A stretch of DNA of 60,685 nt, counting the filler, from Dugesia japonica (Eukaryota), in assembly GCA_001938525.1 (NCBI GenBank). It is 5 parts of 5 records of this genome, joined end to end, with 100 filler letters (N's around TTAATTAATTAA, not from the genome) between each part and the next. Parts side by side here need not be neighbours in the genome. Positions count along the whole stretch, not along the records: positions 49,404 to 60,685 come from MQRL01609362.1; 4 more parts are not named here. One strand, 5' to 3'. Below, piece by piece: positions 3,001 through 60,685 of this stretch. A program made the position numbers and the translations under genes. The notes under the pieces were generated by a model. It saw only the letters and a program-made list of their open reading frames with translations, did not search any database and was not told where the DNA came from. The stretch's first letter is position 1. Each line of letters opens with the position of its first letter.

Positions 3001-6000
3001 GAGAGTATATCGAATCTTTAACACTTGCCATTTTACTCATTCGATTAAATCTTACGTCACCTTTATCATAATTGAGAATGCAATTTCCTTAGAAGTCAGT
3101 AATTAAAACCTTCGATCTTTTTATTCTATTTTATGAGTTGTACTTTATCGCCACTTCACATCAAATTCGTTTTTGTGTTCAAAAATTTGCACTCATCACA
3201 TAAACATTCTAATAGCATATTAAAACAATATGCAATTCATCATAAAACTCGGAATTTCTTGTAGTTTTCATAGTAATTTTCACAATCTGTTCCACTTCAT
3301 TTGTTTCAATATCATTTTCATTGACTGGACGCCATTTGACTAAAGTCTTTAAAAAGATAGCCACATCTTCAGTTTAGACCCTTTAAATTTAACCAAAACA
3401 AATTAGGTATCGTTCAAACCGCAATGAGTTCATAGACATTTTTGCAATTATTACAAATTTAAATTTAATTTACTATGTCAAATTAGATATCATTCAACCC
3501 GTAAAGAGACAAAAAACCTTTTTATCTGAATACACAACCTTCTGATGTACTCTTATCATTAATTTAATAATAAATATCTAATAAGCCTTTTAATTTTATC
3601 TGACCATATTAAAATTAGTTATCATTCCAGCCAAAATGTGATTACAAACATTTCTAATACGTTTACGTAACCTGGTGACATAACTTTACTATTATTTATT
3701 TAATCAAAACGCTGTAAACCATTTTATTTTATGTTAATCATGTTAAAAATGTATCGTTCAAACCGTAATGAAATGACAGAGATTTATATTACGATTACAC
3801 AAACGTCTGGCGGATCCTTGCCATTCAAAATCTTGTATACCCATTAGAACTTTTAATTTTATGTTAACCATATCAATTAAAGCAACATTCAAAAAATAAA
3901 ATTACGAAAGTTTCATACATAATTATGTAACCAACTAACTTAGCCTTAACCATTTATTAATTAATCAAAACCTAGTAAACTCTTTATTTTAATTTTAACC
4001 ATATCATTTTAGGTTATCTTCCGAATCGAAATTTCTAGGATGTTTACAAAGTTGTATAATGAAACCATAACTATTTAATAGTACTATAAGAAAGAACAGA
4101 TTTAAAATTTTTTCACTTGAAAAACGGAATTTAGTAAAATATAAAGTATATTTAAAATTATATCGAGAAAATAAAATAAACTTTCTGAATAAAAATTTAA
4201 TTAAGGAAAATAAACTGATTAAATTTAATTCTAGAGAACCTTTTTCGTTTCTCTAATAATCGGTAGATATTTAAAATTTAATTAACACTCATAAAAAATA
4301 ATTAGTTATCCAACCATTTCCCAGATATAAAATCCTATCTTTCTGACAATCGGCATCAGTTACACAAGTTGAATTTTTCACGTTTCGATTCTAATATACA
4401 TAATTAAGTTAATCAAATTTAAAAAAATATACTTCCAGAAAAACTCTTTGGTTTTGATTGTAAGTTGCTATGAAATTGGTAGTAATAAATATTCCATTTT
4501 CTTCCTAAAAAGATTTCATTAAAAACAGGCATACACTATGAGTTTCAAAGCATAATAAATACATAAGCACCTCATGAAATTGTGTATCAATAGACGATTT
4601 TTATTGGACAGGTAGCTTTGTAGATTGAGTAAATGGCGAATGTATAGACGTTAATATGAAGAGCTGGAAGAATATTGTAAACGATTTCATTTTAAAGTTG
4701 ATTTTATTGCTGAAGATACGGATAGTATTTCCTTATCATGTATCGGGGTAGATAAAAACAGCTTTTGTCCTGAATGAAATGGTATCATCTGCTAGATAAG
4801 AGCAATTATTCAAAAGATAATTCACTCTATTATAGTAATTTTGTCAATAAAATTGGATTGTTTAAAGATGAAAAGCAAGGTGAATGGGTATTCCTATGTT
4901 CAAAATGTTATAATTTGAAAAAGGAAGATTACAATACAATGATGAAGGTGAAAGAAATCAGTTTAAAACAAATCGATATCAATCATCAAAACTATTTAAA
5001 TATGTGCAATGAAGATAAAGAACAATATAAAAGGATCTAAGCAAGTCTAGTTTCAAAACATCAATAGGATTACACAATAAAGAGTATGAAACGCGTGTTT
5101 TAAAATGATAAGCGTTTTGAAGAGGAAGTAATACTAATATGGTCCATGGCTATTTTAAAGTTATTAATTAAATAATAACTTTATAATAGCTGTTTTAATT
5201 ACATCTGTGGATTCCAATTTTAACAACTTATTAATTATTATGATATTAAAAGTTATTTTTGTTTAACCATATTAATTTAAATGTTTGACAAATCTATAAT
5301 CATTTGTTTAACTGGGTTAATTTATTTACCATTTACAGTTATTTTTCAAAATTTAAATTATAAAGTAAATGTTTATTTTAATTGTTATTTTATTTTACAT
5401 ATTTACTTTTATAGATTTAAATAATATGTCTCATGAAATTTTAACTATGAGAAATGGAATTCAAACAAAACTATTATTGAAACAATGTATAAAAGTAATT
5501 TTTAATGATATCATTAATAATAATTTTACTTAGAATACAAATTATATATTGATTTCATTAATTATACTCAGACGAAGCGTAATTTTACTTAAACATATTT
5601 ATTAAGAATTATTTTCTTCGGGTGAGCAGCTAACATTAATGGAACTGGGAACATATAATGTCAGGAGCATTGAATAGTTTGTTCAAGGAGCATCTAATGT
5701 CGGTTTCAGTCAAGAGTGCGTACCCATAGACATCTAAGTTTGTACCCTGTAAAAACTTATGTTTCCAACAAACATCTCATAGTATGAACCCTGAAACACT
5801 TGATATTTAAGTCATTGAAAGAATATTAATATTGATTAGTTTAGCATTGAATAGTTTTTTCTAGGATCATTTAATATCGGATAGATGAGGCTCCAGCGGT
5901 TTACATCTTAGGACGGGACGTGAATAGTCGGAATAACTGCCGCGCTGTACATCGTCGGAGCAATCAATGTAATGATACGGAAGGAAAACAAGACTGTTAC

Positions 6001-30894: not shown

Positions 30895-31277
30895 CAAAAG
30901 CAAATAAAAAACCAAAGTATAAAGTTGGTGATCATGTGAAAATCTCGAAAATATTAGCTTCACCATTTATCAAGAATTTCCATATTAATTGGACTGTTGA
31001 AGTGTTTTAAATAACAAAAACCAACATGAAACCAAATTCGGTCATGTATGTTATTAAAGATTTTGAAGAAAATATTGTGCAAGGAAAATTTCTATGAGCA
31101 AGAATTACACGTCATTCCACCACCAGAGATATATAGAATAGAATTACAAGTCATTCCACCACCAGAGATATATAGAATAGAATCAATAATCAAATCAAAA
31201 GAATCAGGAAAGAATAAACAATACTATGTAAAGTGGCATTAATACGAATAACCAAGTTGGATATTAACATCACAATA
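30895..31277 (+). pseudogene. Polinton integrase C-terminus with chromodomain
   Basis: KPKYKVGDHVKISK..NWTVEVF..YVIKD..GKFYEQEL..YRIESII..QYYVKW..PSWI. Confidence 0.85.
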
Positions 31278-31285
31278 AGTCAATC

Positions 31286-32804
31286 ATGAAGAAACCTCAG
31301 ATGAAATCGAGTAATTTCTATGCACTGTTACCGAGTAATAGCTGTCCACTTATTCATCCCGAAAATAATGCTAATAAATTCATTGTTGAGCTACAAAATC
31401 CAATTTATATGGATGGTAGTTGGGAAATTGCCATGATGGACTTTACTTTTGTGTATTCACCATTTTCAGTATATAGCAAATCGAAAATTGAATACATGAC
31501 TGCAAAGAATACATTGAATGAAATAACTGTAACAATCAATAACAAGGGAAAAACAATTAGTCTTGATCAAAATAAAAATTTGAAATATTTGAAAATAATC
31601 TCATAAGACTTTATTGTGATTTTTCATATGTTGTCATATTTGAAGATGCAAATATTGCACACTCATTTGAATAAGGATTTAAATCTAAACAATTATGAAA
31701 CAAATTTGGTCATATCTATAGAAACTTTGCAAATGATGAAACAATACAAAATGTAAAAATTAAAGTAGCTTATACAATGGTGAATTATCATACTTTTCAG
31801 TTAAAAGATGATATATACATATCAGAATTGGAACAATTAAGTAAATATTTGACAGAAAATTGTACTCAAATATTTAAGAAATGCCTTATAAATGCAGATA
31901 AATATTATAAATTCGAGGTACAAGATGATATCAAAAAGGTTGTTTTTGATAATGTCTTGACATAAAAACATTGGGATTAAACAAACAACAATATTCTCCT
32001 ATAGATATGAAGGAGGCGAGTTCAAAGCTATTACCAAATCGAAAATAATGAAGTGACATCAGCAAATGTTCATCTATCGTAGCCTTGTTGAACTTATAAT
32101 TGTAGGGGATGTTAGTGTACCTTTGTTGANNNNNNNNNNNNNNNNNNNNNNNNNNNNNNNNNNNNNNNNNNNNNNNNNNAATAAGGATTTAAATCTAAAC
32201 AATTATGAAACAAATTTGGTCATATCTATAGAAACTTTGCAAATGATGAAACAGTACAAAATGTAAAAATTAAAGTAGCTTATGCAATGGTGAATTATCA
32301 TACTTTTCAGTTAAAAGTTGATATATACATATCAGAATTGGAACAATTAAGTAAATATTTGACAGAAAATTGTACTCAAATATTTTAGAAATGCCTTATA
32401 AATGCAGATAAATATTTTAAATTCGAGGTACAAGATGATATCAAAAAGGTTGTATTTGATAATGTCTTGACATAAAAACATTGGGATTAAACAAACAACC
32501 ATATTCTCCTATAGATATTAAGGAGGCGAGTTCAAAGCTATTACCAAATCGAAAATAATGAAGTTACATCAGCAAATGTTCATCTATCGTAGCCTTGTTG
32601 AACTTATAATTGTAGGGGATGTTAGTGTACCTTTGTTGAAATCAATGAAGTAACACAAATAATAGTCGAGAATCTAATATATTTACCTATTGCAACATCA
32701 TGTATAAACATTATAGAAATTTATCTACGCGATGATAACGGAAACTTAATAAAGTTTCCAAGACATTCAAAAACTCATATACTCATAACATTTTAGAAAA
32801 CTAA
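31286..32804 (+). pseudogene. Polinton minor capsid protein (penton, PX); includes a gap-flanking duplicated segment
   Basis: N-terminus FYALLPSNSC..PENNANKFIVELQNPIYMDGSWEIAM; C-terminus MFIYRSLVELIIVGDVSVPLL..YLPI..IEIYLRDDNG..FRK. Confidence 0.8.
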
Positions 32805-32807
32805 GTA

Positions 32808-33238
32808 ATGAATCCTGATATTTTTTCAATGTATAGTACTGGTCAAGTAGGTGGAGAATTAGCTTACTTTCTTGGAAAACAGTATGGATCTGGTTGTTTA
32901 CGAACAATTCGCTATGCCAATTCTTAGACGTATTGGTTATTTTGGTATGTAAAAAGCTCAGGATGTACTAGTAAATAATGAGAAAATACTATCAACATTG
33001 AAATTTAATACAGTAGCTAAGCTTGGAAATGTTCTCTCATCATTATCCTAGTGGAGTAAACAGTTTGATTCTAAAAGTAGCAAACATATTATTGCAAAGT
33101 ATAACTAATAAAATACACTCAGAAATACCTAATCAAATCAAGTCAAAACATCTCAAAATCAAAGAAAACGCAAATAAATCACACTCATCGCGTATAAGCA
33201 AACGAATGAGAGGCCATAAAACCATATTTGATAAATAA
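32808..33238 (+). pseudogene. Small Polinton ORF between penton and major capsid (QxGxG-type, basic C-terminus)
   Basis: GQVGGELAYF..KQYGSG and a basic tail ending TIFDK, in the expected position within the capsid gene block. Confidence 0.55.
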
Positions 33239-33478
33239 TTTGCGGTAAAACTGAATTATGTATTTTTGATCAACAATCTCCTCAAGCTGTAATTGAAAAA
33301 GGTAGTTCCGAAGATGTCTTTGCTATGAATTCAATTTCTGAATCACAAAGTGACGTAGAGGTTTTTATATTTTATACAGAATATTTGGATTTGAATGATA
33401 CTTCATTGTATATTAAAGTGAAGGTTGTTGATAAGACTGGTAAAGATTTGGCTGACACTCATGATGCAGTTCCAAATC
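33236..33478 (+). pseudogene. Polinton major capsid protein (PY/hexon-like) N-terminus, truncated at an assembly linker
   Basis: FDQQSPQAVIEKG..EYLDLNDTSLYIKVKVVDKTG. Confidence 0.75.
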
Positions 33479-33728
33479 TTAATTAATTAATTTGACATTT
33501 TAAAATACACACATACTCGAATTTAATTGGTTAGGTTTGAAAACTTTGGTAAAAGTTATTATTATTCATCACAATTTCAAATTAATTTTAGAAAACCAGT
33601 GAACAATTCAAGAGAGCTTAAAGTAATTTATTATTATTAAAACCATTATTAACTTTTATTTTTAGTTTTATTATGAACAATCATAAACAAAATCAAAGAA
33701 AGGATAATAATTTTACCAACGAAACAGT

Positions 33729-34049
33729 ATGAACTCAGTTATAGGGAAATTTAAAAATGAGAATAAAGAGAAAAAGTATCAAGAATGGGTATTTTTGAGG
33801 CCAAAATGCTATAGCCTGCTCGGTGATAAGAGCAACATGAGAGCAAAAGGCATAACATTGAAGAAAACAGAATTTTCTCACCAGTCTTACCGTGGGTGTT
33901 ATAATGAGAACAAATCTGTCTCGGTGTAACAATTTAGGACAACCACCAAAGATTATCAATTATATAGTAAATATAATAAACACGGACGATAAGCGCGTAT
34001 GGGTAGATAAAAATAAAAGTGTCCTATATGGTTACTATAGTATTAAATA
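33729..34049 (+). pseudogene. Polinton pPolB C-terminal fragment
   Basis: IGKFKNE..EWVFLRPKCYS..RAKGI..DDKRVW..YGYY. Confidence 0.85.
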
Positions 34050-34150
34050 GTTTTTTCCATAAAACCCATAAATCTATCCAGCCTGGTCAAAACCTCAAAC
34101 AATGGTAGATATTTATTTGTTTTTAAATTTTATTTTAATTAATTTTATTT

Positions 34151-34264
34151 AATTCATTTAATATAAAAGCTTAGATCAAAATTATTGATATTGGATAACA
34201 ATTCAATAATGAATTGTTATCCAATATCAATAATTTTGATCTAAGCTTTTATATTAAATGAATT
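34151..34264. repeat. Near-perfect ~114-bp palindrome
   Basis: aattcatttaatataaaagcttagatcaaaattattgatattggataacaattca, loop ataa, then the exact reverse complement. Confidence 0.9.
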
Positions 34265-34802
34265 CTATAAAACGATCAATGGTTAGGTCCAACAATTATT
34301 CTCGTAATAATTGCAATTGTAAAATAATTTTATTTAGATTATTGTCATAAAAGAAAACAAATACATTGTAAACGTATAACCGTCTTCTTTAGGACCAAAA
34401 TCATACATTTTTTTTCGGAGAACAGGAATAACAAGTAAAACAGTAAGGAAATAAATAAATCAATAAGAAATACAAGACCTGGTAAATTTTCAATAAAAAC
34501 AAAAGATTTAAAATTAAATAATGAAATAAAATATCCAATTAATTCGAATTCAAATGGAAAATAGAAGAAATGTAGAGAAGAATGTAATACTCTTCTTCGT
34601 TAACAAAATTCTAAAAATGAGGAATATTAAAATGAAAATAAAGAAATTAATGAAAATTAAGAAGTAACTACTAATGATGAGATTAATGAAAATGATGAGT
34701 GAATAAAGTTTATAAAGCACTTTTTGTTATATGAAACTAAAAACAAAGAATCATGTGAGGGTGAGAGAATAATTGCTTATGTTACTTATAATATGCTTGT
34801 TT

Positions 34803-36788
34803 GTAGATAGATAGTAGGGGGTAAAGAGCAGCACACTACAGCCCTCCCACCGCCGTGACGTAATGACATTTAATACTAATGCATTTAGTTGGGAATTTAA
34901 AAATTGCATCATTAAGTAATTATTACGATACTGTTTTCGTATTTCCCTGCGTAATTAGTTGAGAATATTTTTTAGGCTTTTTAAGCAGTAATAATCCGGG
35001 CAAACTGATCATGTTGTTTAAATAATAATTAAAATTTTTTATAGAAATCTGAGTGAACAATCTAAATTTTTGAAAAAAAATAAAAATATGTTCTATATTT
35101 TAGATTTCAAAGATTTGTATACCAAACTGCTGAGAATTCTACGGCGAACATTTGTCACAAATAAAGGTTTTTTGAAAATGTTTTCCTTCTCAAATAGGTT
35201 AAAACGTGTCTATTTAATATAAATATTTTTGCTGAGTCAAAATAGGTTAACCTAAAACCGTCAAAGTTAACACTCAATTAATTAAATGAGGTTTTCAGAT
35301 GAAAACATCTCAAAAATCCGAGTTTAGCACTCAGAGCTCTGTGCACAGAGAACTGCTATCGACACAAATTTGGTATCATTTTACTCAGGAGGAAAAGGTG
35401 ACTGTACAAAGTTAAAATATCATCTCTGGAAAAATGCTTCATAACGAATATGTACAGCCGCACTCCCCGATTTTTTAACATTTATGAAAATATGAAAAGT
35501 AACTCAAACTTTATTGAAATTTATACTCTTCAATAGGAAATTTTACAGTTAGTACGAATAAAATGGTTAAAAAACAACAAAACTTATACATAAAAAAGTT
35601 ATAAAAAAACAAGTATTTTATTTGTGATTCCCCAAAGTCGATTATAGTTAATGAAGGGTAATTATTGCTTATTTTTTTAGTCTATTTAGCCAGTTTTCAA
35701 CTGGTGGTAAATAATAGGAAAATTTGCTAAATATAGGTAAATAAGAGGTAAATCAGGAAAATAGAGGGTAAATGATAGAAAATGACTAAAGTATGGGAAA
35801 TGGTGATGAAAATTAGTGAAAATCAATAAAACCTAGATAAATTAAGCATGTTAAATGACTGTATGTATAAAATAAATTTAATATAATTGGTGACTAGATA
35901 AACTTTATTAAATATTTTCCATGTCAAAACCCCTATTTTCCAATGGTAAAACTCGTATTGTTTATGATAAATCCATTATTTTCCAATGACGAAACTCATT
36001 TTCCATATCGAAACCGTATAATAATGTTTAAGTTATAGTATAAAATTTGATTTTACTAATAATATAACTGATAATTAGATATTTAAAAGAAAATGAAACC
36101 AATGAGAACCAAGGTGCACGCAGAGATACCAATGAGCAAGCAAAAATGAAGGTAAATAGTGAAGGATTGTATTGAAAGGGATATCTATATTTCATATGAT
36201 GAAACTCATATTTTTCATGTTGAAACCTATATTGAACGCAAATTGTAATGGACTTAATTCTTTATCCAATAAAATAAGTCATGAATTATTATTATCATTT
36301 CAAACTTAATACATAAATATAAAGAAAATATAGAAAAGTCTGACAAAATATGTTAAAATAGGGCAAAACTGGGTCAGATAGGACCAAATAGGGACAAATA
36401 GAGTCAAAAAGGTTAAATAGGTCAAAATACTGCAAAATCAAGTAAAATAGGATAAAACAGGGCAAAATATGGTATTTAGGGGTAAATAGAGAAATAATAA
36501 TAGTTATTCTTGTTATTATTATTAAAAATATATTTAAACGACACGTGGTCTATTACATAATAAGTACACACATATACTATTACGTAACCAACCACGCGAC
36601 AATTAAACTGTTACATAACAGTCACTTGTGTGTATTATATTACATAATCACTAAAGTAATAAGTAACTTATTATGTAGTAATAAATAACTAGTTGCTGTG
36701 TTACGTAATAAATTTAGGGAAAAAAATTATTTAGTTACAATAAATAAACTGCATGTGTGCTGATCTTCCCCCCTAATACCTATCTACT
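34803..36788. mobile_element. Non-autonomous element with Polinton-like (A)GTAGATAG termini
   Basis: Left end gtagatagatagtagggggtaaagagcagcacac; the right end reverse complement is agtagataggtattaggggggaagatcagcacac. Internal 10-bp periodic tracts and TTACRTAA repeats. Confidence 0.6.
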
Positions 36789-37099
36789 TGTTCTCTTTTC
36801 CAAAGTAGTTGATAAAAAACAAATCGAAAATAACTTCTTTAAACATTTAATTGAATCAACAACAACTGCAGATTATAAAAATATCAAAATTTATATTAAT
36901 TTTGTATTAAAAGTAAAATTATGAAAACAGTGACACACTAAGAGTAAATTAGATTTAGTTAATAATTTAGAATTTAATCATGTAATAATCAAAATGATTC
37001 ATTAAAAATATCTACAGGAATAATTTCAAATTTAATAAAAGTATCTGATATTGTTTTTAAATCATTACAATTTTAAATATTTCTAATGCAAAATTTAAT

Positions 37100-39300
37100 C
37101 ATAGAGTATCATTAGATTTTTCAAATGCAACAAAAATGACTTTGGAAAATAATTTATTTCCAAGTTTATTTAAATCAATAAGATTAAAATTTGGATCTAC
37201 AGAAGTAGAATATATTAATAATCCTGAAATAACATCAGCAATAAAAAATAAACGCCATTTAAAATCAAACTTTATTGTTATATATATTCAACGAATCAAT
37301 CGTCATCATCAGACAAAATTGAAATAAATGAGTTTATTTAGTCTGTATTATTCAAACAAAGATTCATGCGATTATACTGAATATAAGACGGCTATAATTC
37401 TTAATTTTTAAAATTTTTAACGACTTTTCAATAAAATTTATTTATATAATAATATTTTATTACTGTTACCTATAAAATCAAAACTTTTTTACCAACGTAT
37501 TTAAATTTTTTAATTTTAGATTATATGAAAAATTTTTAAAACCTATGAAAATTGAAATTTATTTCAAAAATAAAATAAAATAAAAACGTATGAAGTAAAA
37601 AAAAATTTTTAAAATTCACTTTCATAAATAAAATACACAACCTATAAAAATTTTTGAAAATAAATCAATATTTCAATAAAAACTGAAAAATTACTTTATA
37701 TCCAAAAATTTTTTTTAAATTTTAAAATTAATTTAGTCGAGTGAGCTGCCTGTATATTAATGATTGGATTATGAAATCTAATCATTAACGCCTCATAGTA
37801 ATTTTTAAATTGCTTAGACAAAATTTTAAAATTTGAAATTTCAACATTCGCGTTGCAATTACTTTAGGTTAGATTTCATAATCCAAGCATTAATGTACAG
37901 GCAGCTCATTCGACTAAATTAATTAAAATTTTTAAAAATATTTTTTGGATACAAAGTAATTTTTCAGTTTTTATTGAAATATTGATTTATTTGCAATATT
38001 TTATTTTTTTATTTGCAAATTTTTATAGGTTGTGTATTTTATTTATTAAAGTGAATTTTAAAAATTTTACTTACTTCATACGTTTTTATTTTATTTTATT
38101 TTTGGAAATAAATTTCAATTTTCACAGGTTTTAAAAAATTTTAATATTAAACAGTAATAAAATAGTGTTATATAAATAAATTGTATTGAAAAGTCGTTAA
38201 AAATTTAAAAAATTATGATTTTTTTTTAAAAATTAAGAATTATAGCCGCCTCATATTCAGTATAATCGCATTAATCTTTGTTGGAATAATACAGACTGAA
38301 TAAACTCATTTATTTCAATTTTGTCTGATGACGTCATCATATATTAATCCGTCGAAANNNNNNNNNNNNNNNNNNNNNNNNNNNNNNNNNNNNNNNNNNN
38401 NNNNNNNATATAACAATAAAGTTTTATTTTAAATGGCGTTACTTATTTTTTATTAAACATTTGCCATCGTTTTTTGCAAATTTCAACAATGTTAAATTTT
38501 GTATTAACTAAAGATTCAGATGGAAATATTGGTTATTATAAAAGAAAATAAAATAATACATTAAAGTTATAATTCATTATACAAAATTTGACGAATATTT
38601 TGAATTTAAAAGTTTATTTGAATTTATGGAAAGTAATAAAAGATTACTTTATATTGTTTTTATTAAATTAATTTTAATAGATAAAGAGATGATAAATTAC
38701 TTTTTTCTGGATCAATAGGAGATGCAGCTAAAGAACTCTTATAAATTTTGAATTGGGTATTTCTCAATAGACATGAAATCCTAAAATAGAACTTATTTAT
38801 TTAAAAAGAATGTCTTCTAATAAACCAATTTTAGTAAGTTAAGTTGCAAAAAAGGAAACAGGAACTCATTATTCTTTAAAAATAGGTAATTTGGCTTATA
38901 AAACAAGATATATGATAGTAGTAATAAAAGTTCAAGAAGTTTCGTTTTCAAAGAGTAATAATTTATTTCTTCAAAAAACGTCGGAGATAATAATTTAGAA
39001 ATAATTAAAATACAATTAAATAATACATACTATCCGATTAATAATATGGAATTCAGTGTTGAAAATAATGAAATAATATTTCCATAGTTGGCTTATATTA
39101 AATGTCTTAAATATTTTAATCAACCTCTTCAATTGTCATTAAAAGACTTAAAAAAAATTATATCCAATATTCTTTAAAGATGTAAGTGCTAAAACTGATA
39201 ATTTAAATATTAATAATGTGGACATAAAACTTCATAAAACAAATGATACAGATTTTAAAGGAATGATATATTAACTTATTCTTGAAGGAAAACGTATTTG
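37100..39300 (+). pseudogene. Major capsid protein of a second Polinton lineage, heavily decayed and interrupted by a foldback element
   Basis: TLENNLFPSLFKSIRLKFGSTEVEYINNP; a downstream remnant IKIQLNNTYYP follows the insertion. Confidence 0.55.
37240..38455. mobile_element. ~1.2 kb foldback (long inverted repeat) element
   Basis: The arms are reverse complements, e.g. aacgccatttaaaat / attttaaatggcgtt and aatttagtcgagtgagctgcctgta / tacaggcagctcattcgactaaatt. Centre ~37800-37860. Related arm at ~45250-45715. Confidence 0.88.
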
Positions 39301-46899: not shown

Positions 46900-48559
46900 C
46901 TCTTAAACTACAGTAGTTACATTACTACTGTGTCCTCTAGAACGCTCTAGATAAAAATTATAGATCGAAGCCTAACAAAGTTTGAAGCCTTGTATAAAAC
47001 TGAACTTTCACATTATGTTTAAATGAAAATGAAATATAAATTAAAATTTTGTTAACTGGAAAATAATCAATGTAAGATATTTCACCAGCTAAAAAGTTTA
47101 ATTCTAATCTATTAACTAAAATATGTGCTACAAACATGTACTATTTTTTTACAAATAATTTCAACAATGATTAAAATCATCGCGATATTAATTCAGAAGG
47201 AATTTGTTATAATTTATAGTATATATTTGATGGATTCAAGAAGTTCTATAAAAGACGTGAAATGTATTTTACAGACGAGAGTATCACGAAAAATCAAAAA
47301 CAAAATTGTCAGCATGTATGATCGAAAAATATCTATTAAAAATGTATGCAAAAATAACAGAAAAATTTTAAAGCAGGCTAGTAATAGCATTTGATTACAA
47401 AAAAGATGTAGTCAAATATTAAAAAAATAATTTGAGTTATTGACAAATAATATTGAAGAGATCAAAGCATTCTTAAAAAAGTGTAAGACTTAGCGAACAG
47501 TTTGTTCGAGGAAAAGGAATCAATCAAAGAAACTTAATTAAAAGAATATTAATAATATGCAGAGAGAATAAGAAATTAGCGAATGAAGTTGTAAAGAATA
47601 TGCATCGATGTACGTAATGCATCTTATCAAATAGATTTGAGCAAAGAATCNNNNNNNNNNNNNNNNNNNNNNNNNNNNNNNNNNNNNNNNNNNNNNNNNN
47701 AAAAGACGTGAAATGTATTTTACAGACGAGAGTATCACGAAAAATCAAAAACAAAATTGTCAGCATGTATGATCGAAAAATATCTATTAAAAATGTATGC
47801 AAAAATAACAGAAAAATTTTAAAGCAGGCTAGTAATAGCATTTGATTACAAAAAAGATGTAGTCAAATATTAAAAAAATAATTTGAGTTATTGACAAATA
47901 ANATTGAAGAGATCAAAGCATTCTTAAAAAAGTGTAAGACTTAGCGAACAGTTTGTTCGAGGAAAAGGAATCAATCAAAGAAACTTAATTAAAAGAATAT
48001 TAATAATATGCAGAGAGAATAAGAAATTAGCGAATGAAGTTGTAAAGAATATGCATCGATGTACGTAATGCATCTTATCAAATAGATTTGAGCAAAGAAT
48101 CGCAGGGGAGACAACAAACTGCTCAACAAAGAACGGACTAGAATTCCAGTTACAATTTGTGCGGCACCGGCTAAAATACGATATTATCAGATCTTGACAG
48201 CCCTAACAAGAAAAAATAAGGAATAAACAATAAAGAGAAATATGTTAAAATAGAAGAAAAACATGTAGAGTTGAAAACTGCAAATTGAAAGATTGGGTTT
48301 TATGGAAAATGTTAAATGATATGATGTCATCAAAGTATGATTTCCAGTAATTAAATATTAAATTATTAATTAAAATGAAAAACAAAAACATTGTTTGTAT
48401 AAATTGTAATAAAAGATTATAAAAAGCTAGACACCAACGAAGTTGCCTTCTAAAGACTTGAAAAGAAGTGAAAGGTGATCTTCAATTTTTTCTTTTGTTA
48501 ATAAAATTTTAAAACCATTTTCTTGGGAAAAGTATTCAGTCGAAAGACTTTTGTTTCAA

Positions 48560-48820
48560 CATACTAATACTAGACTAGGAACTAAATTAGATTTAAGACT
48601 TGATGAAAATAATATTCCTTTTCCAGAAGAAGAATTAATTACCCAAGTAGATTAAACAGCTTTAAGACATGACTTAGCTTACAAAGATAAAGATCTAAGA
48701 TAAAGGCATTTTGCACATGTAACTTTGATTCATGATTTACATAATATGAATAATTCAACTAGAAGTAAAAAGATACAATTTGGTTTAGTAAAATTAGCAA
48801 TGGAAGGAAAAATAATGATA
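48560..48820 (+). pseudogene. Polinton-type phospholipase A2-like (parvovirus VP1u-like) domain remnant
   Basis: GTKLDLRLDEN..VD*TALRHDLAY..RHFAH; the HDxxY catalytic motif is present. Confidence 0.75.
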
Positions 48821-48829
48821 TGAGGAAGT

Positions 48830-49250
48830 TTACAAGATGAATTATATAAAGAATATAAAAAACCTAGGCATTACATTTAAGTACAAATATATGTACAAGA
48901 TGATATTTGGGTTAGCTGAATTAATACTTTTAAATAAAAGGAATGAAGGGAAAAAAAGTGAAGCCAATTCTCCTGTTCCAAATTTTAATAGTATTCTATT
49001 TGTATACAAGATTTGGTTTTATGTACACGTATAAAAAATAAATTTGAGAATATAGAATAAACTAGTGATAGAATTCCTAATAATTTATGGATTGATAAAG
49101 GGAATGAAATCGGTAAATCATTTGAAAGGAAAACAATATGAATAATATAAACTGAAAATGAAGGTAAAGCTCTTTTTATTGAAAGATTTAAAGAAAGAAC
49201 TTTAAAAAATAAATGGGATAAATACTTTCCATCTGTTAGTAATCAGAAAT
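48830..49250 (+). pseudogene. Polinton integrase core remnant
   Basis: DELYKEYKKPR..DDIW..RIPNNLWIDKGNE..TENEGKALFIERF..RTLKNK. Confidence 0.78.
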
Positions 49251-49914
49251 GAGATATAACTTTATTAGGTCATAAAGTAAATGGGTAGATAGATAGTAGC
49301 GGTNNNNNNNNNNNNNNNNNNNNNNNNNNNNNNNNNNNNNNNNNNNNTTAATTAATTAANNNNNNNNNNNNNNNNNNNNNNNNNNNNNNNNNNNNNNNNN
49401 NNNAAACTATTGTCGTCGGCTCCCTTGGATCTTGGTCAACTGAAAATGACAAAATTCTTACAGGAATAGGACTTAGCAGTAACGCCATCAAAAATCTAAC
49501 AGTAGACTGCATCAATTCTAACATTAAGTGGAGCAGAAATAACTGGGACGCGCACAACACAAATTACATGCGGGAAAATAATAGAGAAGATGNNNNNNNN
49601 NNNNNNNNNNNNNNNNNNNNNNNNNNNNNNNNNNNNNNNNNNNNNNNNNNNNNNNNNNNNNNNNNNNNNNNNNNNNNNNACCGCTTTAGGTTTCTGAGGT
49701 AGTGGGCTCCGGCCAGGCAGTATTCATGGCTTCTTCGTAGGCAATCGTATTATAATAGAAGTTGTAAGAACTGTTCTTCTCAGTTTTATCTATGAGGAGT
49801 AAAAAGTTTTTTGCTTTAAAATTTGAGATGAATTTGTCATTGACGGAGTCTCGAGAACTCCTGGAAAACATTGAAATCTCTTTAAATTGAAATTAATTAA
49901 AGTTCAAAACAATT

Positions 49915-50062
49915 TATGGTAACCAATGACCTTGACCTACTTTTTTTTGGAAACGACCTTGACCTAGTTTCCGTTGCTAAGGACGGTTGCCATGGTAACC
50001 AATGACCCAGATACCGTTGCTAACCCGGTTGCCATGGCAAGCTCCCTCCCCCTTTGACCTAC
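49915..50062. promoter_or_regulatory. Cluster of RFX X-box-like and TGACCT (nuclear-receptor half-site-like) motifs
   Basis: GTTGCCATGGTAAC (49986-49999), GTTGCCATGGCAAG (50028-50041), GTTGCTAAGGAC, GACCTTGACCT twice and TGACCT. Confidence 0.5.
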
Positions 50063-50089
50063 TTTGTCCTAGTGTCCTCCTTTCCTACT

Positions 50090-53000
50090 ACTGACTGCAC
50101 TTTCTACTTTATCTTGTTCTTTCAACCCTGTCTATATAAATTCTGGTAGCTTCTGTATTATAGGTTCTAAAATTGCTGAAATTTGTTTGCACTCTGATGA
50201 TAGCACTGTATTTCCAATCCACATCTTTAATTCTGGCTATAATAATAATAGTACTTGATGTAATATCTTTTCCGTTGATAATTCTGATGGTTCGAATCTC
50301 TCCATGATTTCCTGCGATACTGCTGTTAATTGTTTATCATGCGTGAGTTTTCGTCGTGTTTCTCCTTTTATCATAATAGATTCTCTTGGTCGTCCTCGTG
50401 CTTTTCGTTTCATTTATGTCTCCGCATCAACCATTATTCTTTGATATATCTCTTGATCTGTTGTTTCCTCTTGGTTATCTGTAGTTTCGATTACATTATC
50501 AGTTGTAGTTATTTCCTCTTCAAATTCTACTGGTGGACATATATTTTTTCCTTTAAGTTCATATTCTAATGGAGTTGGAATTCTCTTATTTTGCTCAAAT
50601 TCTATCAATGATAGTGATTTCTCTATAAAGAAATTGATTTTTGTCTTGTTAACTCTGGTATTCTCGGTGACACAAATTATTCATCTTCGATATCATAGTT
50701 TACTTCTCTAGGATTAAATTTACTTTTTACTGTCTTCTTCTTTTCATTGGCATTTGCCTCATTGTTGCAGGATCAATTCTCGCTATCTGTAACTCCTCTT
50801 CATCATCATCACTTGGTAATCTAAATACTTGTTCAATAACATCATCTTCTTATGTCGTAATTTCTTTCGATGATATATGTCCTTTTGACTTCATTGATTT
50901 ACTCTTAGTTGATTTTGATGTCGTATTACTCGTACCCTCTTCATTATCAATTACAATTGGTTTTGTATACTTTGTGATCTGTGGTTGAATCTGTTTTCAC
51001 GTTGGCAACGTTTTACGTTTTAATATTTTCTTTTTTATTAATCTCTTTCCAACTTCTGGTTTAATATATAATTAAGCTATCTGCTTCCACCGTACGTTCA
51101 TGGTACCGATTATGTTGTCATTCAAAAATTCTCTGTCATTCAATGTTAAAATATATGGTGGTTTAAACGGTATTTTCTCCTTTATATCTCCAATTGTTTC
51201 GTATGCAAGACCAGCTATCTTAGTTTTGTATCCTTTCGGATCTGTCTTGGTTTGATTTCGTCTATCTCATTGTCCTGCCATCGTTTTAAAATCTATCTGA
51301 ATTGCTTTGGTCTCCACGTGAATCGTTCTTTATATCTTGATATTTTGAATGTCAAATCTCTTAATTCATCTATTGATAAATCTCCTTTTAGTATTTGATC
51401 CATTAAGCTCTGAGCCTCTACTCTTGAAATCTCTTCTTCATTGATTAAAGATATAAATTGAGCTACTGGATCTGACGCATCTTCATTTGTCTTCTTTTTA
51501 TGATTCTTCAGTACTAATATCTCTGCTGATCTGTTCAACTCTTGATTTGATTTGTATTGTCGATTCGATGCTCGTCCGAATTGTAATATTTCAACTTTTT
51601 CTGCTAAGTCAAAATTTAAGTCTTCAGGATGTACCTGTAATCCCCATGGCATCAATGGATTTATATTCTCCACATAATATTATATTGTATTTTGACATAA
51701 ATTCTCTCTGATTTTTCTTCTAGTATACGGATTTCTATCTCCGCCTTCTACTACAAATACATGTATTTGCATCATATGGCCTGGCTATATACCTGATAAT
51801 TTAACTGCATCACCGTAGAGGTCTTCAGTAATCTCTTCATCACAATAAATTACAATATGTTCTCCTTTGACCACTGACATATTTTCTTTATCTATTAACG
51901 ATTGTTTATTCACATATTTTAGTATTAACTTTATCATTTTCTCTCATTTTGTCATCGTTTTCACTTCAAATTCTTTACTCGATTCATCTAGAAAGTTTGC
52001 TGTCACTTTCACTACTTGTTTCGGCGTTTGTGATGTCTGTAAATAAACTATTTCTCTCACTGCTTCATTAAAATGTTCTCCGAATATCAACCCTAGTTGA
52101 TTCATTCGATCAATTAACTCTTTTATTTCTCCAATTTTAATATAATGAAAATTATTTAGTATTAGTAATCCAACTTTTGCAAAATTTCACTTAAACGTTT
52201 TCCACGATTCCACTTCGTTTTCTGTTGTTGCTGTTAATCCGATTTGATCATCATGTACTAACTTTAAATACTCAAGTTGATCTATTTCCTCTTGACACAC
52301 TTTTCTGATCTTTGCTCGAATTTTGCTGAGTGATAATTTCTCAAACTCTCTTGGTTGTCCATCATCATATTCTAATCTTATTTCTGTAATCTCTCCAAAT
52401 CTTAACCTAAACTCAATCAAATGCATTTCTCGGTTATTCAATTTATCTCGTTCAATTATCACATAATCGAAAATAATTCTGTGTCGCTCTAATCCGTATT
52501 CTAACGGTAATTCACTAAGAAAGTCTTTTAATTCACCGACCGTTGTCGTTTCAAATCTTTTAATCACTTTTGTTTGCATTGTTGTCACTAAATCATCATC
52601 TATCGTTGGATAATTAATTTTAATTCCAAAATCTGCTCCCACTATTCCTGTTATTATGCCTTCTGTATACATCTCGATTAGTTCTGGGCGCTTTGTTCCC
52701 CTCATCATAAGTATATAATGTTCATCCCACGCCAAATTCATTATTCTTCAACATGACTGTTTTGGAATTTTGTCCTTTCGAAATAAAGTTTCTATAATGT
52801 TATGTATTATCGTTGCCATATTTTGATAATATTTATTGTCTGAATCGTCTTCTATTACTACCGATGTTTTGCTCAATTCGCTCATACTAATATCAGTTAG
52901 GCTTGTTGGTTCTTTCGGTCTCTTTTTACTTTTACTCAAAAATTGGTTTGAAATTGATCTCATCATAAATAATTTTCCTAGACTCGTACCAGGTTTGTTG

Positions 53001-55436
53001 TATTCTATCTTTGATTCCAAAACTTGGTCATGTTGTTCTTTGAGTTTCAGATTTTTAATTAGCAGCACAATATAACTCATATAAAATTTATACAGCGATT
53101 TTAAAATTTCTTTGGTTCTTTGAAAATCCAAATACGGCTATACCGATTCGTTGAATTTACAAATTCGCTCTCGGTCTAATAAGGTGATGACCACTTTTTT
53201 TACTACGTCTTACTCCATAATCATATATGTGAGTTTCTACATCGTCTAAATGGATTATCATTGTCTCCGAACAGATAATGTATTTGCGAAGTGATCCTCC
53301 CCAACCAAATCTTTTCACTNCTTTAATTAATGCTTTTATTGTGGTGCTTTCCAATGTTAATTTCCGCGGAAAATTCCATCCGGATAATCGTATGATAGAA
53401 TATTAGTCTGAAACTCTCGTGACATAAGCTGCCGTATCTTTAACGGGTTTAGGTGGTATCACTGCAAATATCTCGAAATTATCTACTTTCGCACTTTCTA
53501 ACAATTCAATTTCGTATTCTTGTATTTGGGGCTCCATTGTCGTTTTGTTTCAGCATCTACATGACCAGGTTCAAGTAATTCTCGGAAATGATTCATGATC
53601 TTCTAATATTGTCGTCTATTCAATTTGTCTTTCAATCCCTGTGGTAAAGCCATTACTTTCTAGATAGTATTTGTGGTGGTCGTTCCATATTTATTGGTGC
53701 TCTTTGTTCCTTGCTTGCTCTTTTTACCTTCAGTAAGGCTTCTATTGTCTTGATTTCCTCTTTGATTGTATTATCTGCTTCCTCTTCAGTTTCAGATATA
53801 TCTTTAGTTGTCATCATATTTACTTGTGCGATTAATCTTGGTTTGCTTTGGGGGAACTTTTATCTCTGATCTTGTCTACATTTGTTTGATTTCTCTTTCA
53901 ACGTTTCTATTGTTAGTTATAGCTGATCTGTATGGTGCCAATTTAGCCGGTTCTAAATTAAATTTGGTTACAAATTGTCCATATCGTGTAGCAGTTGTCA
54001 TTGATTTTCGCACTTTGTATATCTGTAGAATTTTTGCTCTAAGGACTTCAAGATTTTCTTCATAGTTCGAATTTGTAAAAATGCTACACCAGTTTCTTTG
54101 TTTTATAAATTTTTGTTAAATCTAAGACTTGTATTATATCCTTACGTCCAGGTCGAATTCCATAATTCGTTATATGCGCATCAGTATCATCTAGTTCGAT
54201 TATTCTCGTCTTGAAACACATTACAGAATCATACAATGGTCTTTTGAGTACGTTTTTATTCTTTATAATGCACAATAGTCCTCCCACCGGATCGCTTTGC
54301 AAGGTGACCTGACAAGGTGCCATTTCTTCAGCCGGTTCTTTGAATTCTTTATATACTTTATTGATAATGATTTTGAAGTTTGCCCGTACTGTCTTGTCTC
54401 GCATTTCACTTTCATACTCCCAGATCATTGTTTGCCATTACTCTTTAGTTCTTGGACTTAGATGACTACATTCTATTAGCTCCATTACATGATTCGTCGA
54501 TTTCCAATAAGGTTTTCTGCCAATCGTTCCTTTAAATTCTTGTATCAAATCGAGCATACTCTCTACTCGTCTTTTTATTGAAGCTTGTTTGCTCTCGTCT
54601 ACTTTTACTTCTTCGTCATTGATCGCTCGCATCATATGCACTTGTCCTTGATCATTATTATTATTTGATGCTCTCTCGTTTAATCTCATTTGCGCTACTC
54701 GTTGTTCCTCGACTTGTAACTGTAAGTATTCTTGTTCTTGTGTGAGTTTATCATATACTCGCTGGTGTGTTGCTTCGTGTTGCTGTACTTTCCGCTACAT
54801 CATATTGACTCTTTGTTTCTGATTACTCTAAAATTTTTGTCTTAGATTTTACAATCAAGACAAGAAAATGCATAAACGAAAACTATATTGCTGTTAACAA
54901 ACTAATCACACAATAGTTTCTTGTACCTCAATAATTTCATCAAATAGCACCAGAATTTGATGAAGCGCAGTCACTATTTTAGCAGTTAATCGCTCCGTCA
55001 TCTTAGTATATTCTTCTGCTTTGATCTGTTTGGAACGTGATTTCTTTATTAGATGTTGTTGATGTTGGTTTAACTCTGTTGATCGAATGAGCAGTAACAC
55101 CAGCTCCTTTTCTCGCTGTTCTTGCTGGGTCATCACGTCCGCGAGTTGACTCTCATATGTCCGTTCTTGTTGTTCTACTCTCTGTAGATAGTCGAGTATC
55201 CCTAGCTTTTGTCGCAGGATCTCCTCTTGCTTATTCAACTGATTCCTCATAGTTAGAAGGTCAAGATCCTTTTGACGAATGCGATCCTGTGTGATCCACC
55301 ATGGATCTATATCAGTTCCATATTCACCAAAGGAATCTCACAGATCCGACATAGTGTTTGCCACGTTTGTCTGGAAGAAGCATTCTTTTGATTTTAATGA
55401 TTTGTTGGTCACTGCTCTGGTAATCGATTTAGACAT
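50090..55436 (-). pseudogene. Decayed ~5.3 kb ORF: coiled-coil N-terminus, about five divergent ubiquitin-like domains, charged C-terminus
   Basis: Neighbouring track ORFs are in frame across single stops (e.g. 54689-54438 into 54428-54084; ATG 55436 into 55250) or joined by frameshifts. Ub-like motifs include IQIDFKTMAGQ, ETIGDIKEKI, TTTVGELKDFL..RHRIIFD, LDDTDAHITNYGI and LDDVETHIYDYGV. Confidence 0.6.
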
Positions 55437-56239
55437 TCTAGATACCAAAATTAACAATTTGCATTACACAAATTTAATAATTCATAATACAACTAATAAT
55501 ATTTAATAATATCTGTTAGTTGGGTTTTAAAAAATTATCGAATCATTAACATCAGAATTCAAATTCATTAAAACGACTAATTACTATAAACAAATTTTAA
55601 CCAACAATATTTGTTAATCAAACAAATTAAAACCCTGTGTTTTATTGGTGATCTTTTTTCTAAAATTAAAAATAAATATTCCAATTTATAAGACTGTTTC
55701 ACAAATCTATCATCGGAATTTTGTGTAAAATAAAAAGTGGATTTTAGCTTTAATTATTTTCTGACCATCCAAATGTTATTATTTGTCGACGTCTCATAGG
55801 ATTAAAAGTTGATTCTGTTAAATAATTAGCCATAACAAATAGAAATTGTTAACGTGTATTGTCTATTGATTTCAATTACGATTTATAATTTCAATTAAAA
55901 AGAAATAAATTGAAATTAGCTGTGGATATTTAAGACTGTATCTCACTAATTTGATGCCAATTTTGAACACATGTTATCAGGGCTCCAGCTTCATCCCTCT
56001 TTACTTTGTGTAATCATTTATTGTAAAAAAGATTTTTTTTTTATCTTTTTGATAAATTTTTACCACATTACAAAAAACCGTATCAATTGTCAAACATTTA
56101 AGTCTAACTTTAAAATTTGTTATTATACGGCAGAAACTAGACAAAAAAGTTTGGTAACCTTAAATCTTGAGTCATTATCCCCATAAGGGATAACTTATCA
56201 ATAAAAGTACGTTAACCTATTAATTGTGATTTACTTCTG

Positions 56240-56440: not shown

Positions 56441-58638
56441 TCAAATTTTTAAATCACTGACATAAGATTCTAGTTTTTTCAATAATTCATCTGTGGCATT
56501 ATTAGACTTTTTCATTAAATTTTTTAAGACAACACTCAAATTCGACTTCACCTCTTGAGATATTTCCGACTTCATATCTAATATTTTCTCTAAAACCTAA
56601 AATTTTGAATAAATAAATAATATTAATTAATCGAAATACTTTTATGGGTAATGTTTCATTTTCTTTACAAACCGGGACAAAATGCTTTTCTTCACTTTTG
56701 ATACAACCCATCTCTACAAGAATTGCATTGGTAGCTTTAGACCAAGACGCACTTGATGACAGAACATTATTTATCAATGAAACACCAAAATCGAAAGTTG
56801 ATGTATTTTTGCATAATATTAGTCCAATACGAATTGCGTTCTCAGGTTTATTTTCAGCAAGTGTATATATACTAGAGTCAAATGAATTATTTACTAATTT
56901 CTTATTATTAATCAGAAAAGATTCATTTATATCCATTAAAGAACTCAACTCCAAATTAGTCATAACATATTGTTTTAATTGAATATAATTTTCATCGCAA
57001 ATATCATTTACAGCTTCAATAAATGAAAATGGTTGCGAAAGTTTTGAACCGAATTTAAAATTCAAATCTGTATCTTTAGAAATAAAAATATTTGGTTGGT
57101 TTGTTTTAGCAAATAAATTTGATTTAATTTCACCGACTGAAGATGAAAATAAGTTGCCATGATCAGAATTAGGTAAATTTCTGCTAAACTCAAATGGTTT
57201 GTTTGAACAAGTAGAAGAAAATATATTTTTTTCCTTTGTTTCTACAATTCCGACCNNNNNNNNNNNNNNNNNNNNNNNNNNNNNNNNNNNNNNNNNNNNN
57301 NNNNNNNNNNNNNNNNNNNNNNNNNNNNNNNNNNNNNTGATAGTCAAATATTAAATAACAAAAGAAATCTTACCACTTTCACTGCATTCATCAGAATATT
57401 GTGATTCAGAAGAACTATTTCCTTCACTATCTGTGTCTGTATTGTTATCACTATAGTCTTCATCACTGCCCAGTTCATTTTCCACCAAAGCATGTTCTTT
57501 ATCGTATTCGGCCATAATGTCCTTAATTTCACACCAAGCAGATTTCTTAATTTCATTTTCTGTTAAATCAATTTTTTCCACAGAATGTTTAATTTTAACT
57601 ATAGTGGAAACAAACTAAAGAAAAGTAAAAACAAAGAAATAATTAAAAATATATACATTTCTGGCAGTTCGTCCATTTATTTCATTTCCAGAAATAGATA
57701 ATACTTTTAAATTATCACTCATATCATCAAGAATTTTAGTAAGACAATCCATTCCACTGTTACTTATTAAACAGTCTCCCATATGCAGTTCTTCCAAATT
57801 ATCAAATAATGGAAGAACTTTACTAAGTCGTTTCATTCCATCTGGTTTAATAGTATTATCTGATATGTTTATTACTTTTAGATCTTTATGGTTTTTAATC
57901 GACAATATGAAGTCATCTACTCCTTCAACTCCATGAACACCTATTCCATTCTGTAACAAAACTATTTTTTTCAAGCTTTTCATGCCGTCACCAAATAATT
58001 CCGTTAGCATTTTCATTCCAGCATTTTCTAAACGATTTCTTCCAGCAATAAAAACTTCCAAATTCATTCCTTGTTTATTACTGTCTAACCTAGATTTATT
58101 TAGTGCATCAATTAATTGCCTACAACCCTGGTGACCTAATCCTTGATTATTCATGTTTAAGATCTAAATAATGATTTAGGTAAGGCACATTCTTAGTTAA
58201 TATTTACTTTAAGAGTATAACAACACGGATTAGCAAGCAATTCTGTAACACCAGCAACTCCATTAGGACCAAAAGCATTATCACTTAAATCGACTTCAAC
58301 TAAATGTACTTTTGCTTGAATTAAGCCTAGTGATAAAGATTTCAATGCAACGCTTATTTCAGTTTTAAGTCTTCCTAAAGATACGATTTCATAATTATAA
58401 AAAATTACAAATTGTATTTGCCTGTGAATAAATCATTCCATAGTAACCGTTCAATTTTAGAATGTTTCGATATGGGCTGCGTCAATTTATCGGCTGCATC
58501 AACGCCTAATGTGTTACCGCTTAATTGAAGAGTTGTAATAGAATCTAAATTTGAATCTAAATCGTTTATAACATGTTCAATATCCTCTTCAGTATTCCAT
58601 TGTTTCTGACAACCAGCATAAGATAAAATTGATTCCAT
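56441..58638 (-). CDS. RANGAP1: Ran GTPase-activating protein 1. Exons 58638-58422, 58374-58208, 58163-57657, 57614-57374, (gap)57255-56640, 56596-56441
   Basis: LRR motifs [43 protein letters not shown] and QNGI; an acidic tract; C-terminal domain with MGCIKSEEK (SUMO site psi-K-x-E). All resolved introns are 42-47 nt and in phase. Confidence 0.96.
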
Positions 58639-60685
58639 ATTAAAATAATTAAGTATTTTAAAATACAAAAATATTTTAAGAAATTCGGTGTATACAAACA
58701 AATTTTCATCTGACAAACGTTCTTTTAAATTCTAATAGATAAACTTTTTCTTAATTTGAGTGTTTGAATGTTTTAATTAGAATTAATAAAAACCGGCTTT
58801 CTGGAAACTGTTGAATCTGGTTTTTGAAATCTTAGGAACAAAATATTTTGGTTTTTTTTCAATTCTTATTTTAAAAAATCACAGCCTGAAATTTTATTCT
58901 TTTATTTTTAGTTCATTTTATAAAGATGTTTTTATTTTCTAAACTTTTAAATATTATAACTTTATTTCTTCTAATAAATTTTTTATTATACTAAAAGGAA
59001 TGAATATTTTGTTGTATATTTAAATAAATATATGGATAAATATATGGGAGCACATTATTATATTACTCTTGTTAAATTAAGTTTGGTTATATTTTCTTTT
59101 CTAAAACACTTTTCTAACTCAATTCCTATATTTTCTGAATATACGCTCAATTTATATTTAATCTTGAATTAATTAATTTACTTTTTAAAAAAAAATCTGT
59201 AGAACCCAAAAGTCTGCCAAAGTGCGTGGGAACAATTGGGCTTTATGTTTTCTATTCTGAAATTTAGTCAATTGAAAATTTTGCAATGTCATTTTTCTAG
59301 TAATTTAATTCCTTAACGGTTGCTAGGTTTATTCGATTTGGTTTTATAAATTCTATAGATTATTTCTGAAATTATAGTGATTAATTCAAAATTAATGCGA
59401 TTAAACTTTTTGAAGATATGACAGAGTAAAGTTGTCTTAGTAACTCAAAAAATTAACTAAATTTAAATTGACTGTTATATTTTTTTTTACTCATGGCTTA
59501 ATTAATAATTATATTGAAAGCATTTGAGTACAATTTTCATTAACTTTCACGAAGCAAATTGATAAGAAAGCCAGGAAATGAAAAGAAGATAAAGACCCAA
59601 GATTAAAAAACAAGCAGCATGAAGTGGTTTAAGTAGTTAAAGTATAAAGATAAACGATAATCAATAAGTAGAAGAGAAGGAGAAAAATAGGAACTTGTGT
59701 AATAAAGACAGAAGAAATGTAACAATGGAAAAGAGATTACGGGATAAGAGTAGAGATAAACTGAAAATAGCGAATTCGTTAAATTAATAATTATATATAA
59801 AAGAATTAAATTATTGATGAAATAAAACTCTCAGATAAAATTAATTTTTAGCTTGGAAAAAAAATGATAATTCAATTAAGAAATTACTTTAAAAGAAAAA
59901 AATAAACAATTAATTTATGAAAAATTAAATACAATCCAAATTAATATGATTAAATAAAATTAAAGTAGAAATTATGATACTCGAAAGGGAAAACAGAAGA
60001 AAATAAAGTCTTTCCATTAAGCAAAATTGGCAAACAAGAAAATTATGGTTGAATAAAATCTATAGATTTCAGAAATCCAATCTAGAAAGTTATAGTTTCA
60101 TCAGAAAAGTTACATGGGTTATATTGGATTCAATCAATTGGATTCAATCAGTTTTGAATTTTCGAAAATTAAGTCAATTAGAAGAATTGGCACCACATGT
60201 TAAGAGTATAATTAATAGTATAATCACGATTAAACACTGCAAAACTAAATACAATTAATAAACCGATTCTAAAATTATGTTGGAGTTCCATCTGAGTTGG
60301 AAAAAAGGTGACTGGGGAAAAAACAGTCCTCAGGGGAACCCTTTCAAGAATNNNNNNNNNNNNNNNNNNNNNNNNNNNNNNNNNNNNNNNNNNNNNNNNN
60401 NNGTGCTCACCAATAAACCTTTTGTTCGGGTTCTATATTTTCCCAATAATATTTAAACTATTTCTATTAATTAAACATTTAATATTACGAAAAGAATTAA
60501 ATCATTTCTATAAATTAGACATTTATTATTAAGCAACAACTACATCAGGTTCACGGCCGCAGGGTCTAACCGCTGATCTGGAGATGTGACGACGAGGTTG
60601 AAAGCAGCAAGGTCGTCGTCATCATCCCATTGGGTGGTGTTCGGATTTCCTAATTGCCTCGACAGGTCAGCTATATACTGTTTAA

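Follow-up and report, generated by a model that had tools for sequence, protein, structure and literature searches.

Within a 60,685-nucleotide stretch of Dugesia japonica DNA (the window: five parts of assembly GCA_001938525.1 joined end to end), the minus strand from 54848 to 50093 holds a decayed piece from the interior of a multicopy Burro-type Ty3/gypsy gag-X-env-pol polyprotein gene, and this piece encodes an array of five predicted ubiquitin-like domains (UBLs). We set the element beside Burro1 by its published layout, and we regard its assignment to the Burro type as close to certain. Coding fragments pass from frame to frame along the minus strand at ~54850–50090 and make up one decayed coding run without introns, 1,585 codons long, with ~22 stops and ~7 frame changes (both counts are approximate, the segments having been set by hand). 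A first-pass annotation of this DNA had joined the fragments into one giant frame. The single intron-free run stands, but it spans the 1,585 codons of 54848–50093 and leaves out the open reading frame (ORF) at 55436–54906. Truncated at both ends, this copy is very unlikely to produce a protein. Its features, all on the minus strand, are as follows.

50093–54848, minus: fragment of the Burro-type polyprotein, from after the zinc knuckles to the Bcl-2-like stretch; DNA matches of other copies begin at 54848 and end at 50093
54573–54848, minus: Gln/Glu-rich post-Gag stretch, probably a coiled coil; 66% identical to the stop-free frame of copy L006
54111–54572, minus: repeat unit 1, probable three-helix bundle plus UBL (UBL at ~54380–54111); profile match, homologous to unit 2
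53199–53677, minus: repeat unit 2, a divergent variant with one frame change; profile match, fold inferred from unit 3
52355–52819, minus: repeat unit 3, predicted three-helix bundle followed by a beta-grasp of the UBX/ubiquitin-like type; modelled from its counterpart in copy L005 (75% identical)
51725–52033, minus: module 4, predicted SUMO-like beta-grasp; L005 model compared with SUMO2 (5tvp)
51042–51245, minus: module 5, predicted compact ubiquitin-like beta-grasp, its first strand damaged in the window copy; L005 model
50093–50323, minus: truncated beginning of the Bcl-2-like stretch; 74% identical to copy L032

A multicopy Burro-type polyprotein gene

A DNA search of the same genome, a check that the first-pass annotation had proposed, revealed a multicopy family: among the best 40 of 3,751 candidates, copies are 70–89% identical to the window and their matches start at 54848 and stop at ~50093. 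A protein search with module 4 gave at least 150 matches. The copies fall into three families, namely A, to which the window copy belongs, C (~55% identical) and the sister family B (~25–30% identical).

Elsewhere in the genome the order is gag, array, Bcl-2-like stretch, env, protease (PR), reverse transcriptase (RT), RNase H (RH) and integrase (IN). Other copies carry gag upstream (Retrotrans_gag PF03732, E 3.7e-6, in L035; three zf-CCHC stretches in L031), and the frame of L006 stays free of stops past the zinc knuckles and on into unit 1. Downstream, copies of the closest family match the fusion glycoprotein family PF24664 in Pfam (env, E 1e-24), and other copies match the integrase family rve. 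A 1,752-residue stop-free frame in a sister-family copy (L051) spans the last modules and env and reaches the protease. Locus L056 of family A carries env, protease, RT, the start of RNase H and integrase, locus L052 of family B has the same pol order, and one family-B contig (C609115) holds the entire chain from gag to integrase. Among 143 fetched loci that match the UBL array (overlapping loci counted separately), gag co-occurs in 29, env in 43 and RT or integrase in 9; 79 of these 81 co-occurrences lie on the array's strand, both exceptions being env. These flanks bear out the earlier proposal of a multi-UBL array within a virus-like mobile element.

The same family-B contig carries a separate ORF downstream of pol, resembling inhibitor-of-apoptosis (IAP) proteins, with BIR (5.8e-12) and RING (9e-13) matches (L239, C609115:1–7000, minus strand); BIR was not seen within 4.4 kb past the integrase of one family-A copy. 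The integrase at L239 has a long extension with hydrophobic stretches. Between env and RT, family B shows two aspartic-protease matches (L052:3230–6538), and zinc-knuckle-like and protease-like stretches can be seen by eye in family A.

The array region is under purifying selection. The ratio of nonsynonymous to synonymous substitution rates (dN/dS) is 0.10–0.52, with a median of 0.22, in the 14 unsaturated of 16 pairs, and a ratio of ~0.2 indicates that the region was selected as protein.

This element layout is not new, contrary to the first-pass view of an undescribed system; both the Burro and the GAG-ENV-POL errantivirus arrangements have been published. The passages of PMC6431247 on planarian Burro list Gag, a Ubi2/SUMO-like motif, BCL2, an in-frame env, PR, dUTPase, RT, RH, IN and BIR, together with MATH and ankyrin motifs, long terminal repeats (LTRs) and a total length above 30 kb, and they suggest that Burro meddles with apoptosis and ubiquitination. 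Our element shares with Burro and GYPSM1 a Gag with three CCHC knuckles, a predicted Ubi2/SUMO-like domain, an in-frame mononegavirus-type env between gag and pol, the series PR-RT-RH-IN, a BIR domain (here in the sister family) and many decayed copies; a Bcl-2-like motif after the SUMO-like domain may be a further point in common. It differs in that those passages name one Ubi2/SUMO-like motif, whereas we predict five UBLs in family A and seven in family B, most of them within a repeated unit of helix bundle plus UBL. Burro1 itself may hold the same array unnoticed. Flatworms also carry GAG-ENV-POL errantiviruses with gB-type env, such as Smed_errantivirus_1 and _2 at ~14.8 kb, according to the relevant passages of PMC13524379. 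The order is the same, and the env of our element, of the gB/chuvirus type, by eye resembles the printed Smed env rows. By contrast, 'ubiquitin', 'Bcl' and 'Burro' have no occurrence in the main text of that paper, and its passages on these elements leave the gag–env interval undiscussed. Our literature search found no array of five to seven UBLs for such elements, and PMC6431247 was the sole relevant paper; PMC12440569 (Troyka) contains no occurrence of Burro, ubiquitin or SUMO.

The ubiquitin-like array

Profiles built from close copies match the window at all five modules (54572–54111, 53677–53199, 52819–52355, 52033–51725 and 51245–51042), near where the first-pass annotation had placed them. 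Because of this origin, and because rows of the window went into the profiles of modules 1 and 3, the E-values locate the modules rather than test them. Five UBLs are present as proposed, but not as five tandem repeats, a description that profile–profile comparison led us to reject: modules 1–3 are copies of one unit made of a three-helix bundle and a UBL, and modules 4 and 5 are two other UBLs, unrelated or very diverged, with no profile–profile homology to the repeat unit or to each other (probability <1%). Units 1 and 2 match each other by blastp at E 2e-13, and both match module 3 at E 8e-4 directly and at 4e-9 to 1e-7 via the sister family; pairwise identity between units is 17–30%. In family B there are five units, of which the first is partly matched, and the same two modules follow.

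Unit 2 of the window stands apart. It is 33% identical to unit 2 of L005, against 68–81% for the neighbouring parts, and the summed contig depth falls to 100–170 there, against 1,400–5,200 in the flanking bins. A unit swap between subfamilies is likely. This unit is a minority variant, shared at the DNA level with L048.

Unit 3 of L005, modelled with AlphaFold from 69 natural sequences, is predicted to form three helices followed by a beta-grasp (predicted local distance difference test (pLDDT) 86.9; predicted template modelling score (pTM) 0.78). It aligns with the UBX domain of FAF1 at Z 8.1 (root mean square deviation (rmsd) 2.6, 78 aligned), level with generic helical-bundle matches of its N-terminal part, and its best folds are UBX domains and the UBLs of shuttle factors. 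The Foldseek list for this unit consists mostly of ubiquitin-like proteins, none of which reaches E 0.001. We made no use of the bundle matches (CNOT3, Vta1, designed bundles and helical domains of large toxins), which are generic at Z ~8, or of a PRC1 match to the helical part (E 0.027). In the L005 model of modules 4 and 5, module 4 matches SUMO2 (5tvp) with a target TM score of 0.84 (rmsd 1.9, E 3e-4), a match placed on this module via 90–92 aligned columns and a SUMO2 sequence match of the module-4 profile (E 0.077). Module 5 (residues 271–342 of the model) matches many UBLs, at Z 10.8 with rmsd 1.5 over 70 aligned. Modules 3–5 are predicted to adopt beta-grasp folds at Z 7–11, as the modelling check suggested by the first-pass annotation had anticipated, and units 1 and 2 probably share the fold of unit 3, to which they are homologous in sequence; the three-helix partner is likewise a predicted domain.

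The claim that the modules are ubiquitin-like therefore survives at the fold level only, because none of 13 window fragments matches a ubiquitin family in Pfam. Compared with Pfam, the 69 unit sequences gave just single-member weak matches to ULD_2 and UCH_UBL1. Identity to host UBLs is 8–20%. Protein database searches found no relatives of L005 1957–3462 among longer or similar-length proteins, which is weak evidence; the unit profile had no relatives among 1.84 billion representative proteins, and no Atlas match was at or above 0.9.

A terminal di-Gly is mostly lacking, as had been noted. It follows none of modules 1–4 in any family, and in families A and C it follows module 5 in 1 of 32 contexts; the last UBL of family B is followed by one in eight of nine contexts (for example, L051:2018–2251), a possible host-protease cut site. 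The VEGG after module 4 was found in none of 32 other contexts, and the IQIDFKTMAGQ segment taken as the start of module 5 proved to be an off-frame look-alike of a helical stretch that less-decayed copies read through. The array also departs from polyubiquitin and from conjugatable modifiers in its lack of di-Gly and in units that are 17–30% identical and spaced by helical domains. It is closer to integral, non-conjugated UBLs (the UBX domains of FAF1 and UBXD7; the shuttle-factor UBLs of Ddi1/2, Dsk2 and Rad23; the SUMO-like domains of Rad60; the tandem UBLs of ISG15 and OASL), with a predicted beta-grasp in the same Z range and, in family A, no terminal di-Gly, but it differs from them in its low identity, its place inside a retroelement polyprotein and its pairing with a three-helix bundle. 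In a viral structure library, the top match was a pestivirus ubiquitin insertion (E 2.5e-3). Such insertions in bovine viral diarrhoea virus (BVDV) likewise put a ubiquitin fold within a viral polyprotein (PMC13517609). They are recent host captures, whereas the array modules are old and have diverged strongly, have been duplicated, and for the most part lack di-Gly.

The genome also holds at least 150 ubiquitin-family matches, many of them divergent units ~300 bases apart (for example, in C12114, C597012 and C640737), which reflect either an expansion of UBLs in the host or a further repeat.

Proposed role of the array

The best overall explanation, which we consider probable, is that the locus derives from an accessory region of a Burro-type element in which five predicted ubiquitin folds serve as decoys or docking sites. 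The narrower proposal, in which host readers of ubiquitin or SUMO would be decoyed or docked by UBLs that cannot themselves be conjugated, seems to us evenly balanced. An intact element would make a single gag-env-pol polyprotein, and cleavage by the element's aspartic proteases and by signal peptidase would release the part that lies between Gag and Env. Once released, the array could bind UBL receptors of the p97 or proteasome type, or SUMO-interacting motifs; alongside the Bcl-2-like domain (and, in the sister family, the BIR-RING gene) it may curb protein clearance as well as cell death in the particle-making cell. Units 1–3 arose by tandem duplication, and the number of units is three or five. 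A bolder version, which we offer tentatively and think rather doubtful, is that a two-domain unit not described before (three-helix bundle plus UBX/UBL), expanding and contracting between three and five copies with unit swaps between subfamilies, forms, jointly with the SUMO-like, Bcl-2-like and IAP modules, a dedicated counter-defence against p97 and the proteasome, SUMO silencing and apoptosis, as large DNA viruses do.

Several observations weigh against our favoured explanation. RNA depth over the array is 0–2.8x in run X3, against 25–33x for the neighbouring host gene, and X3 reads at 50302–51234 are mainly antisense; runs X6 and X2 have almost no array reads (mapping at 80% likeness, 6–25% of each run read). 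The family showed no sign of sense expression in these three runs, where the first-pass annotation had looked to RNA for an intact expressed copy, and the window copy looks dead. The assembly comprises 648,594 contigs, and no single family-A copy is open from gag to pol. The Bcl-2-like call depends on PF00452 at E 0.0026–0.0037 in the family-B counterpart, under the curated cut-off, and the family-A stretch has no PF00452 match. The dUTPase, MATH and ankyrin domains listed for published Burro had no Pfam match in the stretches scanned, the dUTPase in the Burro paper having been detected with HHpred and that sought here by Pfam scan only. The fold matches of unit 3 score in the middle range (Z 7–8, Foldseek E ~1e-3), and the model of modules 4 and 5 is weaker (mean pLDDT 61). 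The best UBL match in Pfam, Rad60-SLD PF11976 in one sister copy (L053), is weak at E 0.0025, and no sequence match in the PDB had an E-value below 0.027.

The strongest competing account, unlikely in our judgement, is that the UBLs are internal structural parts without a host target, acting as spacers in folding, as marks for processing, or as a scaffold for Gag, RNA or the replication complex of the element itself. Coronavirus nsp3 Ubl domains offer a parallel for such internal parts. Identity to host UBLs of just 8–20%, the packing of UBL and conserved helical bundle into one well-packed model (pTM 0.78) and the position of the array directly behind Gag all fit this account, but the Bcl-2-like and BIR-RING modules nearby direct attention to the cell-death and ubiquitin pathways of the host, and the variable unit number and swapped unit 2 fit host-driven change.

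Less probable again, by a clear step, is that protein ratios of this one-frame element would be set by the array, as a signal for processing or degradation, with host ubiquitin proteases, or p97 and the proteasome, cutting or removing the post-Gag part, by analogy with the pestivirus ubiquitin insertions in the relevant passages of PMC13517609. The di-Gly in eight of nine family-B contexts speaks for such a signal, as do the UBX and shuttle-factor folds that best match unit 3. Families A and C argue otherwise, with di-Gly in 1 of 32 contexts after module 5 and none elsewhere, and in family B it lies, by eye, one residue earlier than in the register we take ubiquitin to have.

Neighbouring repeats and meaning for Burro-type elements

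Two abundant repeats adjoin the fragment.

54846–55514, minus: separate repeat piece with the coiled-coil ORF 55436–54906, outside the polyprotein; 39 other contigs match this stretch alone
49751–50092, minus: terminal part (AGTAG-type) of an abundant element, its interior leftward, away from the array; flank and 21-mer comparison

The first-pass annotation had taken the coiled-coil ORF as the N-terminus of the giant frame, with a possible intron at ~54830–54925. That ORF belongs to the repeat at 55514–54846, which 39 other contigs (of the best 40) match alone. At 54848 all five copies inspected continue into gag-side sequence, which makes the supposed intron a point of rearrangement; among the RNA joints listed (15 of 49), none spans it. 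The repeat is abundant, with two small coiled-coil ORFs (also in L166, L167 and L174), and several copies run on into the second of these. It occurs beside both Burro-type and Polinton-like pieces. We had considered it as part of a Burro LTR, given same-strand neighbours in L042, L221, L227, L200 and L033, and set the idea aside on its occurrence beside Polinton-like genes.

The AGTAG-type element, presumably Polinton-like, interrupts the Bcl-2-like stretch at 50092. A 21-mer at its terminus has at least 828 exact matches, and upstream flanks are unrelated in 20 of 20 cases; the terminus, once tied to the array, belongs to an independent element. Its end at 49751–50092 has repeated palindromic motifs, which we take to resemble RFX X-boxes. 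An integrase-like piece at 48800–49260 lies past N gaps, and we take 48400–49303 and 31030–37324 to be decayed Polinton-like remnants (PLA2-like, integrase, capsid-like and polymerase tail). These window frames have no significant Pfam match, and homologs of the remnants in L232 match double-jelly-roll (DJR) capsid and phospholipase A2 (PLA2) families.

That the array is cargo of a Polinton-like DNA element, as first suggested, is scarcely credible. These remnants, the abutting AGTAG-type end and the occurrence of the coiled-coil repeat near Polinton-like genes in L220, L227 and L232 speak for it, but it is contradicted because the flanks of other copies are gag, env and pol; moreover, no other copy among the best 40 of 3,751 joins the coiled-coil repeat to the array. 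Cargo would be expected between paired terminal repeats with protein-primed DNA polymerase B (pPolB), capsids and integrase, a setting at odds with the terminus, which faces away, and with the 1 of 143 array loci that matches any of five Polinton-like window fragments.

Farther off, an exact 300-nucleotide duplication (47250–47549 and 47701–48000) across a 50-N gap is probably an assembly artefact. An expressed host leucine-rich repeat (LRR) gene at 56493–58731 (minus strand), which we assume to be RanGAP-like, has introns of 42–47 nucleotides seen as RNA joints.

The element class and its gene order were already known, and the window copy is dead. In the largely unannotated Gag–Env region of Burro-type elements, where a single SUMO-like motif had been reported, the analysis places an array of predicted ubiquitin folds that is under selection and varies in copy number. 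Should the modules bind host readers of ubiquitin or SUMO, this would be a retrotransposon equipped on the scale of a virus to counter protein clearance and cell death, and each domain would offer a way to test the published proposal of Burro interference with these pathways.

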